Below are positions 1,048 to 63,173 of a DNA stretch of 64,000 nt, piece after piece (the stretch's first letter is position 1; each line of letters starts with the position of its first letter). Made by a program: the position numbers and the translations under genes. The notes under the pieces were generated by a model. The model was not told the origin of the DNA, ran no database searches, and was given only the letters and a program-made list of their open reading frames with translations. The stretch is from Octopus vulgaris (lineage: Eukaryota): contig OX597824.1 of NCBI GenBank assembly GCA_951406725.2, positions 36,332,001 through 36,396,000 on the forward strand, written 5' to 3'.

Positions 1048-1096
1048 ATGAGGCATTTGTTGGTTATATTTTATTCCTGGCATCCCCTATTCGGCA
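1048..1096 (+). CDS. Signal-peptide micro-exon A (MRHLLVIFYSWHPLFG+a) of an M4 metalloprotease; no dedicated exon 2
   Basis: ATG plus 15 further mostly hydrophobic codons + A, then GTAAGT donor; phase 1 fits acceptor AG|GT TTG of exon 2 (A+GT = Ser); homologous to modules B-E. Confidence 0.7.
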
Positions 1097-2109
1097 GTAA
1101 GTATATTTTCTAGAATGTTTCATTGTTTAAATTTACATGTATTTTGATTTTGCATTTTCTTCTGGTGACAAACCACTCATTTCCCACATAGAATATTTTG
1201 TAGAAGTTTTGACTTATGGATTATTGTAGTACCTCTACTATTCTCTACCAAACCAAACTTGTAATCATCCTCAACTATTTCTCCTTTGTGACGAGCTCTA
1301 TCAACATGTTGCTGCCTTAGTTAAGACCCATTAGCACAAGAACGAGTCTTAACTATTCTGACATATTCCTTGGTTAAGCTGAATCACAAATTTTTTTCCT
1401 GTATTCCAGACCCAACTATATAGCTATGCAATTACTTCACAAATGATTGTGTCAGCATTACTCTTTCTCTCTCTCTCTCTCTCACTCTCTCTCTCTCTCT
1501 CTCTCACTCTCTCTCTCACTCTCTCTCAGAAACGACTTGTGCTCTTCATCTACTTTGTCAATTGTGACGCCTCGTCATTACTTTCCAACTGTCTCAAAAG
1601 ATTTGATGTAAAAAGAGAAGGTTAATAGTAACCAACAACTGGTTGTTAAGGATTATTTCTTTCTGTTTTATAATGAGGATAGTGGTGTAGATATCCATCA
1701 CCTGGATTTTTTCACCAGTACAAAAGATATCCATTCTTATCTGTTTGAGCTCCTTGAAAATTTGAGTTATATATGTTGTACCTACTTCCATACAAGGCGA
1801 ATGAGTGTTAAGGGGACAAAAGGGACCATATGCTTCACTACAAATTTGTGTTATATTCTGTTTTCATTCTGGGTTGAAACGTCTGCAATGGTGTAATTGA
1901 CGTAATTCTTAGGAATCTGATTAGAAAACCAGCTGAAAATGTGTAGTAATGTGCCTACGTGCATAATGTAGATCCGCATGAGATTTATGAAACAAATATT
2001 AAACAGCTACTTTTCGATTTGACACTACACATGCACAACAGAAATGGCCAATTTGACCAAAAGAACACATTTTTTTCAACTGAAGAGGCTTGTGTAGTTA
2101 CAAAAATTT

Positions 2110-2350
2110 GAAGTCAAAACGTAGCGGCAGATGAAATACCTATTTCTTTACTACCCACAAGAGGCTAAACACAGAGAGGATAAACAAGGACAGACAAACG
2201 GATTAAGTCGATTATATCAGCCCCAGTGCGTAACTGGTACTTATTTAATCGACCCCGAAAGGATGAAAGGCAAAGTCGACCTCGGCGGAATTTGAACTAA
2301 GAACGTAGTGGCAGACGAAATACTGGTAAGCATTTCGTTTGGCATGCTAA
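2110..2350 (-). mobile_element. Cephalopod-type tRNA-derived SINE
   Basis: Core ATCGACCCCGAAAGGATGAAAGGCAAAGTCGACCTCGGCGGAATTTGAACT recurs many times in the window; reverse complement contains B-box-like GTTCAAATTCC. Confidence 0.75.
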
Positions 2351-2507
2351 CCTGTCTTCAGAAATACTCCATCCTCAGTTGCTCTTTCATTTTCTTTTCC
2401 ATTGAACTCTAATATACCAAGGTATTTGTATCCTTCCGTTTCAATTTGCTTAATCAAATTTCTTGAGAGGAGTGAAACTGTATGGTACATTGTTAGCGAT
2501 GTTATCG

Positions 2508-2704
2508 TATAATAATAATAATAATAATAATAATAATAATAATAATAATAATAATAATGATAACAACAACAACAACAACAATAACAATAATAATAATAAT
2601 AATAATAATAACAATAACAATAATAACAACAACAACAACAACAATAATAACAATAACAATAACAAGAACAACAACAACAACAACAACAACAACAACAACA
2701 ACAA
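2508..2704. repeat. Compound (AAT)n/(AAC)n microsatellite
   Basis: Direct reading. Confidence 0.95.
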
Positions 2705-3009
2705 TTTGGAGCATGCGAACAGTAAAGGTCATGTCTATAATAATTAGTGCACTGGGAACAGTAAGCGAAGACCAAATCAAATCGAATTTATTGGCAGAAG
2801 AGCACACTCTGCTTAAGAAGAACACAAATGGCTGAGGGGGATTGAAATAGAATGCCCGGTAGAGATCCTACAGAAAGTTTGTCTCCTAGGGACAGCAAGG
2901 ATTATTAGATGTGAGTTAGTGGGAGTACATGATTTTGCAGGTAATAATGTTAAATATCATTCCTGAAATACGTAACTGTAGCAGCCCAGAATTAAGTGTC
3001 TTCTCAGGG

Positions 3010-3420
3010 AAAGAATGGCTTTAGCAAAACCAAAGTCTTAGTGTCTTTACTGGTTAACAATGCCTTTAGTAATCTAAACACTACGTAGATTTAGAACAAT
3101 GGCTTTAGTAAACTTAACATTAAACCTATTCCTGTGGATCAATGTTTTGAAAACTTAAGCGTTGAGCATCTTTGTCGTTAGCATTTGCATTAGAAACTTA
3201 TATGTTAATTTTCTTTGATGGGTTCTATTGCTTTAGTAATCTAAATTTAAGTATCTTTCCCGGGATCAATGGCATTATCGTTCTAAATTTAAAAGTCTTT
3301 ACAAGGAACGATGGCTTTAATAATCTAATGTTCCTGCGGCAGCATTGCTGGAAATAATGGCCTTAGCAATCAACGGGTAAGATGTCATTGCTAGAAGTAA
3401 TGGATTTCATTATCTAAGTG
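3010..3420. repeat. Degenerate tandem repeat (AATGGCTTTAGTAATCTAAA-like motif, ~40-45 bp period) in the intron after micro-exon A
   Basis: Motif recurs at ~3014, 3059, 3098, 3227, 3268, 3311, 3356; single copies near 18997 and 49740 in the paralogous introns. Confidence 0.55.
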
Positions 3421-60534: not shown

Positions 60535-61115
60535 TCTTTTCTGCTCTTGACACGAGGCCCGAAATTTTGGGGAAGTGGCCAGTCGATTATATCGATCCCA
60601 GTACGCAACTGGTACTTGATTTATCGACACTGAAAGGATGAAAGGGAAAGCTGACCTCGGCGGGATTTTAAACTCAGAACGTAACGGCAGAGAAAATACC
60701 TTTCTTTACTACCCACAAGGGGCTAAACACAGAAGGGACAAACAAAGACAGACAGACGGATTAAGTCGATTACATCAACCCCAGTGCGTAACTGGTACTT
60801 AATTTATCGACTCCGAAATTGTCGAAAGGCAAAGTCGACCTCGGCGGAATTTGAACTCACAACGTAACGGCAGACGAAATACCACTAAGCATTTCGCCCG
60901 GCGTGCTAACGTCTCTGCCAGCTCGCCGCTTTTACAATGTTAAAATATTAATTTCTTTATTGCCCAAAGGGGAATAAACATAGAGGGGACAAACAAGGAC
61001 AGACAAAGGGATTGAGTCGATTACATCAACTCCAGTGCGTAACCGGTACTTATTTAATCGAGCCTAAAGTATGAAAGGCAAAGTGGACCTCGGTGGAATT
61101 TGAACTCAGAACGAA
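60535..61115 (-). mobile_element. Cluster of three SINE units
   Basis: Core repeated at ~60630, 60830 and 61075. Confidence 0.8.
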
Positions 61116-62395
61116 ATAGCAGAATGTTCTGAAGTATATTGTTCACATCTCCAGAGGCATAAAATTCGAGCCAGTTTGCGCGTCACAGCTCCGTAAATAA
61201 GAGTTCCAGTCTGCTTTATTCCAGTCAAATCGGGCAGTTTGAAGACGGTTGTGGTTTTTGTTACAACCAGAGACAAGTCGGCCATGATCATGGAATGATC
61301 AGAGTCACCTAAAGGTTCTTCAGTAGTGACACTAATAATTGTTTCAGGAGAAGCGGTAAATAGCAGATCTAAAGTGATGTTACCCCTTGTAGGGGAGGTA
61401 ACGACTTGAGACCAATTTCAATTCCGCACCAGTTCAAGGAAATCGTCTGCACTTTGCGGCCAACGGAAGGCCTCTCAGTCAATCTAAGGAAAATTGAAGT
61501 TCCCCGCAATATAAACATAAGTGGCTGTTTTCATGGCAGCAACTCTGAGGATATCAAAATGTTGTGTGTCTTGATGATAATTTGGGAGGCGGTAAACAAC
61601 TCCGAGTAGAAGTGTTGACATAGTCATGTGTATATTGCAGAAAAATACTTCCTGTTGAGATTGGTTCAAATCATCACAAGGAATTACCGATAGATTTGAA
61701 CGAACGTAAACCATCACACCCCCACCACGTCGATTAATGCGGTCTTTGCGGAACAGGTTGTAGCCGGCTATGCTGAAAACCCCATCACAGAGTGCAGAGT
61801 GTGCCCATGTTTCCGTGACTGTGATGAAATCGTGGTCGATACTTTTGACGTAAGAGTAAAAAAGATGTACTTCGTTGCATTAACTACGGGCATTTAAAGA
61901 CAACAGTTTGTATCTGGATTTCAGATGACGATGATATACAGGGGATGGCTGATTGTTCTTGTTTAGTTTTCCATGATTTTTGTATTGCCAGTTATTGTGG
62001 GTGCAGTATGTTCAGACCAACTGATATACCTTATCCATGACTCACCAGACTTGACGAATTTCCATATTCCCATCGTCGCGTAGGCTAAAGCTTTCCTGTG
62101 GCACAGAGTTGCGATTTAGGGAAGCTACAGATCTTAGCTTTGAACGAACGTACATCAGTTGGTAGGCCAGGACGTGTCCGAAAGGTAATTCTGTTTTCGC
62201 GCCGAGCCCTATCAGCGGCTAGATGGTATGCCCGCGCCTCAGTAGAGTTCGAAAACAACAGCTTAATCAATCTGGGTTTGGATCCTGGTCAGTCAAAGCG
62301 GAAAGCACTTTTTGGAGGAACACAGCTTAGGTCTTTAGATGTGTTGCCAGTAAATGCCTGTAGATCTATCACATCTTCCGATAGAATCCCATTTC
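61115..62395 (-). mobile_element. CR1/L2-group LINE 5' part (ORF1 end and APE endonuclease), decayed
   Basis: DRINRRGGGVMVYVR, GVVYRLP, AGNFNFP, TLDLLFT, PLGDSDH. Confidence 0.75.
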
Positions 62396-63039
62396 TATGA
62401 AAACATATTAAAATTAGAATTTTAAAGTTTTATTATTCACACTCAGCAAAATCTCTGCTGAAGTAAATGATGCATAGATGTCTCCATTAATCTTAATCGT
62501 CTGGATCCTTAACTTTAAATGTAGAAACCATGTTATAGGTGGGGTTTAACTAAACTAAAACAAAATAGTTATAGTATTTTTTAAAAACTTTTCCAGACTT
62601 TTATGAGATTGGAGAGACTTTTATGAAAAGAATGGATGAAAAATTATTTCAGAAACTAAAATGATACAGACTGATGAATAGAATAGATTACTGTATTATC
62701 AATTTGAATCCGTAGTGATTATTACTAATTTACTGTTTGATTTCCTAGAATGTAACCAATTAAGATTGCTTCTAATTTTTATTGAGTGGATTCCGTAGCT
62801 AAAGCAATTGATATTAACGAGCAATTGAGCAATTGATATTATAGATAAATAAGCACATACTTCGTTAATTCACCTTAAATGTCAGGTAGTAATTTACAAA
62901 TAACTCGTGAATTATTTATAATGATAACAATTATTCAGTATATTGGTACAAAAATTTCTTCTCTTCAAGTGTCGGTAAGCAGTAGATTGAATTGATGTGG
63001 ATACTGAGGGGGGGGGGCCCACGTAATGATTAGACTGAC

Positions 63040-63049
63040 TATATAAATA
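63040..63049 (+). promoter_or_regulatory. TATA box of module E
   Basis: TATATAAATA, as in module D. Confidence 0.6.
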
Positions 63050-63124
63050 AGAGTCAGCAATGATTGAGATACATCTTGAGCTGGTTTTTGAAAAGAGCAT
63101 AGGATTTGTGAATATTACACAATC

Positions 63125-63173
63125 ATGAGGCATTTGATGGTTATATTTTATTCCTGGCATCTCCTATTTGGCA
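63125..63173 (+). CDS. Signal-peptide micro-exon E (MRHLMVIFYSWHLLFG+a); predicts a third M4 paralogue beyond the window
   Basis: Intact ATG, frame and GTAAGT donor; flanks near-identical to module D. Confidence 0.75.

Follow-up and report, generated by a model that had tools for sequence, protein, structure and literature searches.

Introduction

Metalloproteases of the LasB/vibriolysin subgroup of the M4 family are distinguished by an N-A-Y/F-W-D-G edge strand and a hydrophobic S1′ pocket. In Octopus bimaculoides, Liu et al. (Data in Brief, 2018; PMC6011040) described seven Zn-metalloproteinases (ZnMP1–7), which they called transfers from bacteria, so that the family and its bacterial transfer have been reported since 2018. 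According to the available text of that report, the ZnMPs were amplified from hepatopancreas (digestive-gland) cDNA, a single tissue from market-bought animals, and passed a screen that dropped candidates matching at least two of ~95 other eukaryote genomes. Those printed amplicons that could be placed by eye all lie inside the single large exon. Here we analyzed a window of 64,000 nucleotides from Octopus vulgaris (contig OX597824.1, 99.98 Mb long), for which a sequence-only reading had proposed a tandem cluster of such proteases with animal gene structure.

Gene content of the window

The window contains two long open frames, at 19677–21605 (642 aa from stop to stop) and 50373–52346 (657 aa), matching the two intact exons of ~640 codons that had been claimed. 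They belong to two intact M4 prepro-protease genes (A and B), in each of which a small first exon, ending in phase 1, supplies the signal peptide and a single large exon follows. The two frames are 82% identical, and a tblastn search of the window found no M4 match besides them. The features are as follows.

965..1096, + strand: first-exon copy with TATAAA at 965, ATG at 1048, 49 coding nt and an intact GT donor, with no second exon of its own
3350..3643, + strand: degraded remnant, with 72.5% similarity to the intron DNA that precedes exon 2 of gene B (49735–50004)
6124..6255, + strand: gene A exon 1, with TATAAA at 6124, ATG at 6210, 46 coding nt (MHLSVMLYSWYLLFG plus 1 nt) and a GTAAGT donor
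6256..19692, + strand: intron of gene A, 13,437 nt long (GT..AG, phase 1); contains microsatellites and a LINE
11637..12926, − strand: LINE-type reverse transcriptase frame within the gene A intron (Pfam RVT_1, E 2.4e-31)
19693..21605, + strand: gene A exon 2, encoding the signal-peptide end, FTP+PepSY propeptide, M4 catalytic domains (HEFAH, NEAFSD) and a worn PPC-like domain
35936..35984, + strand: first-exon copy, likely dead; the donor reads GA and there is no TATAAA upstream
45471..45602, + strand: gene B exon 1, with TATAAA at 45471, ATG at 45554, 49 coding nt and a GTAAGT donor
50425..52346, + strand: gene B exon 2, a complete M4 prepro-protease carrying every LasB-type motif
63042..63173, + strand: gene C exon 1, with ATG at 63125; serves a copy beyond the window

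Gene A is identical to O. vulgaris CAI9730013.1 (P0004) over 636/636 residues. The sequence-only reading's attribution to octopus was correct. The first exon at 45554 matches the N-terminal end of two proteins, CAI9730014.1 (P0238) and, in O. sinensis, XP_029642704.1; it is annotated for gene B, with predicted splicing. Each gene had been expected to need one spliced signal-peptide exon; spliced contigs show this for A (6210), and the annotation predicts it for B (45554). The window carries five first-exon copies against two second exons. The copy at 1048 looks orphaned and is followed only by the remnant at 3350–3643, which resembles the gene B intron. The second exon of gene C lies beyond the window, at ~68366, and has a frameshift near codon 500. 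Both ends of the span that the sequence-only reading had assigned to the cluster fall on signal-peptide exons (the ATG at 1048 and the exon end at 63173). Followed beyond the window, the cluster comprises eight first-exon copies and five full second exons, confirming tandem amplification. The whole genome gave 11 M4 matches, and the copies are spread over five chromosome-scale contigs.

Splicing and promoter

Transcription of gene A was followed in four runs from four studies, which are presumed to be RNA, carry no tissue label, and provide contig-based depth that cannot rank expression. In all four, contigs joined 6255 to 19693 over the 13.4-kb GT-AG intron: the loose ends of contigs at 19693 matched 6226–6255 (in one run, 1/30 letters differed), and there was no coverage over the 693 intron bases examined. 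Spliced transcripts, whose absence the sequence-only reading had named as a refuting condition, were therefore seen for gene A, and we conclude that it is an integrated and spliced host gene. The idea that gene A can also start from the exon at 1048 found no support; in none of the 4/4 runs was that exon joined to exon A, in contigs that drop rare forms. TATAAA lies upstream of the copies at 1048, 6210, and 45554; judged by loose-end lengths for gene A, the start of three contigs falls 26–44 nt past the box and a fourth contig extends to it, although contigs cannot show starts. Thus, the TATA box of the proposed promoter is present, and its promoter role stays putative.

Family assignment

Of the domains named in advance for a Pfam scan, Peptidase_M4 and M4_C (E 1e-22 to 1e-26) and FTP were found above cut-off, PepSY fell below it (20 vs 24 bits), and PPC gave no match in genes A and B. 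The AlphaFold model of P0238 (gene B; pLDDT 87) has a propeptide matching the vibriolysin propeptide 3nqz_A (E 2e-12), as expected of an FTP + PepSY unit. A C-terminal profile aligned with bacterial PPC regions (hhalign probability 90%, E 1.8e-6); the Atlas leads for PPC reached 0.89, under the 0.9 line, and the Foldseek match to a solved PPC had an E value of only 3e-3. We therefore describe the C-terminal domain as PPC-like, probably a worn PPC, a statement that we did not find in print.

Both genes have the M4 zinc site, HEFAH or HELAH plus NEAFSD, with the downstream Glu as the third ligand. The zinc ligands and the equivalents of Tyr-155, Arg-198, and His-223 (LasB numbering) are kept in 6/6 chr11 copies checked; zinc-dependent endopeptidase activity and autoprocessing are predicted. 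The complete M4 motif set ascribed to both exons is present in gene B; gene A is without two motifs, having EGSYWDG for NAFWDG and SYRFM for LRFM. The N-A edge strand is found in copies B, C, and D and in the distant chr11 copy, whereas A has EGSYWD and the upstream copy EEAFWD; the G-S for N-A change may have lowered the activity of gene A.

Sequence, fold, and tree all place the genes in the LasB/vibriolysin subgroup. The match to pro-elastase (E 5e-87) far exceeds that to thermolysin (8e-32), the catalytic-domain model superimposes on vibriolysin MCP-02 with a TM of 0.95 vs 0.81 for thermolysin, and a branch with 100/100 support separates the LasB-type proteins of animals and bacteria from seven thermolysin-type outgroup rows. 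Because the AlphaFold input alignment contained bacterial M4s, the fold match is not independent of the sequence similarity.

Divergence among copies

Propeptides are 96–99% identical between copies, and catalytic domains 78–90%. Between A and B, synonymous differences affect 6/175 codons in the propeptide and 24/234 in the catalytic domain (Fisher p 0.012), and the same contrast gave p < 0.05 in four of five within-cluster pairs. Further, the flanking intron is 72–86% identical vs 98–99% over most of the propeptide. This pattern suggests that gene conversion likely homogenizes the propeptide DNA across cluster copies; low propeptide dS recurred in one of two comparisons with the distant chr11 copy (p 0.04), and conversion is therefore not the sole reading. 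The pocket positions 132/197 are S/Y in A, L/L in B, and F/L in D. For the catalytic domain, dN/dS values of 0.2–0.56 gave no indication of positive selection, and dN/dS was <1 in every pair for propeptide and catalytic domain alike; the single value above 1, 2.5, came from the C-terminal region of the B–D pair and is based on 4.5 synonymous differences. Homogenized propeptides in copies with differing pocket residues were not found in print.

Origin and age

The matches listed in homology searches include Liolophura, Haliotis, Patella, Pomacea, Potamilus, Mactra, Pinctada, scallops, oysters, Sepia, and Argonauta. These homologs span four mollusc classes (chiton, gastropod, bivalve, and cephalopod) and form one clade (97/90), within which the cluster copies group with octopod sequences only; the chiton, gastropod, and bivalve members rule out an octopus-specific transfer. 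The phylogenetic check proposed beforehand thus gave a firm mollusc clade and LasB-type split, and a position relative to bacteria that depended on the tree: in a quick tree the animal clade is nested among LasB-type bacteria, and in a careful tree it is sister to almost all of them. Holding the 30 bacterial-type rows together was not rejected (p-AU 0.106), and the gammaproteobacterial donor favored by the sequence-only reading is not borne out as a specific donor by these trees. With a GC3 of 0.25–0.28, the genes are as AT-rich as host DNA. Because a 49-nt phase-1 first exon is common to both deep paralog lines, the intron was likely gained before their split. Overall, the ancient horizontal acquisition that had been proposed stands as the best reading, already published for the O. 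bimaculoides homologs, for a gene far older than octopus: comparison of sequences indicates a likely acquisition from a bacterium before molluscs diversified, no later than their last common ancestor.

Two accounts would dispense with such a transfer. That contaminating or symbiont sequence was mis-assembled into the chromosome might be suspected from a coding region that is a single large exon and from best non-mollusc matches that are bacterial. The spliced junction in all four runs is a strong argument against it, and with the host repeats inside the intron, orthologs in three other octopods, and copies on five chromosome-scale contigs, we give this account practically no weight, in line with the earlier dismissal of contamination. 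Somewhat less remote, but still improbable, is an old eukaryotic M4 gene inherited vertically with losses, or passed from animals to proteobacteria. The sister position in the careful tree speaks for it, as does an animal-like group that adjoins the mollusc clade with weak support and shows the family to be wider than molluscs. Against it, the named non-mollusc matches are all bacterial, with no named non-mollusc eukaryote among the matches listed (the best 120 in each of three homology searches; lists confined to the best 120–150 matches under-sample distant M4s of eukaryotes). The domain order, FTP-PepSY-M4 followed by a probable PPC, is that of bacteria, no coding-region intron lies beyond the signal peptide, and the genes passed the published eukaryote-genome screen, as its available text describes it (PMC6011040). 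We retain the bacterial acquisition.

Function

By analogy with bacterial M4 enzymes, the signal peptide would direct the protein into the secretory pathway, where the FTP+PepSY propeptide would fold and block the enzyme; self-cleavage near NNL-x-TIS would then free a mature protease that cleaves on the N-terminal side of hydrophobic residues, perhaps with the PPC-like tail helping to bind the substrate. Within the cluster, conversion likely maintains a common propeptide as the residues of the substrate pocket diverge, which would yield a small panel of differing preferences. We consider it somewhat better than an even chance that these are spliced octopus M4 zinc proteases of the LasB/vibriolysin branch, of bacterial origin by the mollusc last common ancestor, whose tandem copies serve secreted protein digestion, most plausibly in the digestive gland. 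The sequence-only reading had suggested digestion, venom or saliva, or hatching; the sole tissue evidence is the digestive-gland RT-PCR, and we found no support for venom or hatching. No enzymatic characterization of these proteases was found in the literature searched; judged by title or abstract, PMC6011040 stood alone among the papers listed in dealing with these genes.

The same genes, of the same origin, might instead act in immune defense or tissue remodeling (matrix turnover, regeneration, and mucus), roles that a companion paper (Gene, 2018) is said to have proposed. Its retention is not accounted for by diet, given that filter-feeding bivalves, grazers, and predators all have the family, and the digestive gland has defense roles too; yet no result ties the genes to hemocytes or wounds, and hepatopancreas is the only tissue in the available print record (PMC6011040), which leaves this a less likely alternative. 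Recruitment of the octopus cluster to saliva or venom as a prey-softening protease is more doubtful again. A constant propeptide joined to a variable mature part, in copies with different pocket residues that group only with octopod sequences, resembles toxin gene families, but the catalytic dN/dS is below 1, the main text of cephalopod venom papers, as far as available, mentions neither thermolysin nor elastase (a metalloprotease appears in one reference list only), and literature on the octopus salivary-gland proteome and neutral protease yielded nothing relevant. Tentatively, we also entertain a broader scenario, less probable than the digestive reading, in which a single vibriolysin-type gene passed from a bacterium to an early animal lineage before molluscs, surviving also in the intron-split, tandemly arrayed adjoining group, and the octopus cluster evolves like a toxin family, with conversion keeping an interchangeable propeptide chaperone and the S1′ pocket diversifying into a specificity panel.

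Under the preferred reading, the cluster is an old, clean case of an animal that keeps and expands a kind of protease known chiefly for its part in bacterial virulence, and molluscs may depend on these proteases for digestion or defense. The remaining interest lies in the date of the transfer (molluscs only vs deeper in animals) and in whether catalytic domains that differ in their pockets make use of a common propeptide.

Comparison with known systems

Among solved structures, Pseudomonas aeruginosa LasB is the top sequence match, with zinc, catalytic, and four cysteine positions aligned; LasB is without the C-terminal PPC domain, and gene A differs from it in the edge strand and two pocket positions. 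Thermolysin, the Bacillus-type M4 enzyme, has the same fold family but only ~25% identity and occupies the separate branch. Vibriolysin (MCP-02, Vibrio HapA type; MEROPS M4) has a Signal-FTP-PepSY-M4-PPC layout that the octopus proteins follow, with PPC as a probable element, and the catalytic domains superimpose with an rmsd of 1.5 Å at 37% identity; unlike vibriolysin, the octopus gene is split by a spliceosomal intron, and its probable PPC is too worn for Pfam. Mollusc proteins further differ from bacterial ones in an N-terminal propeptide extension with A-x-R-V-D (20/32 mollusc and 2/79 bacterial proteins), often with an R-X-K/R-R site (11/32 vs 4/79). N-Glycosylation sequons did not separate the two groups (5.7 vs 6.3 per 600 aa) and were therefore dropped as a sign of adaptation.

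The closest described proteins are the O. bimaculoides ZnMPs: ZnMP5 (XP_014781458.1; P0005), 78% identical to gene B, and ZnMP6 (XP_014782361.1; P0264) share a clade with A and B, and the printed ZnMP4 amplicon (PMC6011040), compared by eye, contains GHTRFYPST and KDKKSYRFM, which are diagnostic of gene A. That report concerns a different species, and its available text is silent on the cluster layout, orphan first exons, propeptide homogenization, pocket residues, and PPC-like tail described here for O. vulgaris.

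Two M4 metalloprotease genes in a tandem cluster

The window (G000:C11:36332001-36396000) lies on a 99.98-Mb contig of the 2.8-Gb Octopus vulgaris genome and contains two long frames, 82% identical to each other, that encode M4 metalloproteases, as the sequence-only reading had proposed; a third M4 match is absent from the 64 kb.

19677-21605, + strand, open frame A, M4 metalloprotease
50373-52346, + strand, open frame B, M4 metalloprotease

The O. vulgaris protein CAI9730013.1 equals gene A over 636/636 residues, and CAI9730014.1 agrees with gene B at both termini and at 306/306 catalytic-domain columns compared. 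A complete M4 motif set had been claimed for both exons; gene B has all motifs, but gene A departs at two (EGSYWDG and SYRFM).

Across 204 kb, the cluster comprises eight first-exon copies, five full second exons and one fragment. All share the + strand and together span about -27.9 to +93 kb in window coordinates, which bears out the tandem arrangement. The units of genes B, C and D (the latter outside the window) are recent duplicates with 92-98% DNA identity. Copy C is frameshifted near codon 500, within a short homopolymer run; the shift could be genuine or stem from the assembly. The copy upstream of the window (G000:C11 ~36318970-36321400; L001, L017) ends prematurely in …RVSYGLDRAI, an ending also annotated in O. 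sinensis, and a vestige of the normal tail lies ~330 nt beyond. Genome-wide, at least 11 M4 matches occur on five contigs; L010 (G000:C9:114560324-114563560), from the second of the mollusc lines described below, is broken, in several frames.

Other elements in the window include a 19-bp minisatellite of 39 copies (24246-24980), a second short array (25827-25897), long self-inverted repeats at 15056-15360 (86%) and 57742-58203 (84%), probably foldback or MITE-like elements, and a minus-strand frame with several C2H2 zinc-finger-like repeats (22965-23426), possibly part of a retroelement.

Gene A is spliced to a distant first exon

Five first-exon copies lie in the window (ATG at 1048, 6210, 35936, 45554 and 63125). 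In four of them the exon is followed by a GTAAGT donor and its end lies 132 nt past TATAAA; the copy at 35936 lacks both features. In the gene A first exon (6207-6212), AAG occupies the usual start position, with an in-frame ATG one codon on, and the two first-exon copies that precede the window have AGG there.

Read contigs of 4 of 24 listed runs (four studies; presumed RNA, without tissue label) were compared over 19000-22700. In all four, the contig beginning at 19693 extends upstream with the letters of 6226-6255 (one mismatch in one run), and no contig covers 19000-19692. Because these junctions recur in every run, the intron bases compared are uncovered and the upstream string occurs once across the 204-kb region, we conclude that gene A is spliced from 6255 to 19693, over a 13,437-nt GT-AG, phase-1 intron that contains a LINE frame. 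The anticipated spliced signal-peptide exon thus holds for gene A; for gene B, the splice is predicted from its sequence and from database models. Two paralogues checked elsewhere, on C3 and C28, likewise have a first exon of 49 nt that ends in phase 1, which is suggestive, not proof, of one old intron, because animal signal peptides commonly carry phase-1 introns.

The protein resembles vibriolysin

The predicted structure of gene B (mean pLDDT 87) superimposes on vibriolysin MCP-02 with TM 0.95 and rmsd 1.5 Å (TM 0.93 to LasB, 0.81 to thermolysin), and its propeptide matches that of vibriolysin. The zinc ligands and the residues that we take, by LasB numbering, as equivalents of Tyr155, Arg198 and His223 are conserved in six of six chr11 copies checked. 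Pfam has no match for the final 140 residues. When profiles are compared, 20 mollusc tails align to 33 bacterial C-termini with E 1.8e-6, and the tail of the second mollusc line gives E 2.6e-16. We read the tail as a putative, worn PPC domain that leads into a cysteine-bounded helix.

An R-A-R-R site, a furin-type motif, lies shortly after the signal peptide in A (19730-19790) and B (50462-50522); sites of this kind occur in 11/32 mollusc, 17/29 animal-like (see below) and 4/79 bacterial proteins. In P0003, the annotated O. bimaculoides orthologue of gene A, the first part of the propeptide is repeated internally.

Identity between A, B, D and the upstream copy is 96-99% in the propeptide, against 78-90% in the catalytic domain. 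In the propeptide, gene A resembles B (96%) more than its O. bimaculoides orthologue (93%); in the catalytic domain the order is reversed (88% for the orthologue, 80% for B). Between A and B, dS rises from 0.05 in the propeptide to 0.21 in the catalytic domain. This synonymous contrast is significant in four of five within-cluster pairs tested (p uncorrected), and the intron adjoining the propeptide is 72-86% identical between copies. The pattern fits gene conversion across the propeptide, though a similar trend to low propeptide dS appears in one of two pairs with the distant chr11 copy. Variable sites are most concentrated in mature residues 101-240. At pocket positions 132/197, A has S/Y, B has L/L and D has F/L; catalytic dN/dS is 0.2-0.56, with no sign of adaptive change in the compared copies.

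Range and origin of the family

Named eukaryotes among the matches listed are molluscs only: octopods, Sepia, chiton, Haliotis, Patella, Pomacea, unionids, Mactra, Pinctada, scallops and oysters. In a FastTree built on 400 catalytic domains, all named molluscs fall within one 100-row clade (support 92), split into two lines that each include cephalopods and bivalves. The clade includes the Haliotis discus hannai "metalloprotease" AJF36072.1, for which a literature search found no paper. P0346 combines an M4 protease with a pair of ShK domains (Pfam E 5e-10); it falls on a long branch among bacterial rows, apart from the mollusc clade, and may represent a second, independent eukaryotic acquisition. 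In P0133 (Saccostrea echinata) the annotation places the M4 domain behind a neurotransmitter-gated ion channel, to which it is fused; two neighbouring genes were likely merged in the model.

Beside the molluscs lies an animal-like group. Most of its 52 members inspected by eye either begin within or past the signal peptide or run on across a pyrimidine-rich tract, a pattern expected of an ORF caller acting on a second exon. Up to five of the proteins come from contigs of one and the same length. An A-x-R-V-D propeptide start is present in 13/29 of the group, 20/32 molluscs and 2/79 bacteria. We take its members to be probable animal proteins, possibly non-mollusc.

A careful IQ-TREE was built from 81 hand-picked rows (26 mollusc-clade, 18 animal-like, 19 named bacteria, 11 further bacterial-type and 7 thermolysin-type outgroups). 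It supports the molluscs at 97/90, and each mollusc line at 100/99, but molluscs plus the animal-like group at just 67/71. In the quick tree this last clade has an SH-aLRT of 98 and is nested within proteobacteria; in the careful tree it joins one long bacterial-type row, and the two together are sister to the other LasB-type bacterial rows. A constraint uniting all 30 bacterial-type rows was not rejected (p-AU 0.106). The horizontal acquisition put forward in the sequence-only reading thus draws its support from the domain layout and the patchy range, and nesting within bacteria and a particular donor are conjectural; that reading is supported in part. Descent by vertical inheritance would accommodate the sister placement, but set against the layout and range it seems to us improbable. 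Contamination, beside a spliced gene with a LINE frame in its intron, is very unlikely indeed.

Proposed function and relation to known transfers

The prepro-enzyme would be secreted, fold on its own propeptide and cleave itself free, and the freed enzyme would then digest extracellular protein, with the digestive gland as its most plausible source; we favor this account, with a modest degree of confidence. Immune or remodelling roles, reportedly proposed in a companion Gene paper that is also said to date most transfers to the molluscan ancestor, have a smaller though appreciable chance, and a role in saliva or venom we regard as unlikely.

Neither the family nor its transfer is new: seven O. 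bimaculoides Zn-metalloproteinases were named as transfers from bacteria, nest among bacterial homologues in the published trees and were all amplified from hepatopancreas cDNA (Liu et al. 2018, PMC6011040; supplement 2 is a list of bacteria). Two of the accessions are P0005 and P0264 of our homologue set. Newer points are a common propeptide that may serve diverging pockets and a possibly pre-molluscan transfer. Judged by eye, the ZnMP4 amplicon of O. bimaculoides (PMC6011040) resembles the gene A orthologue.
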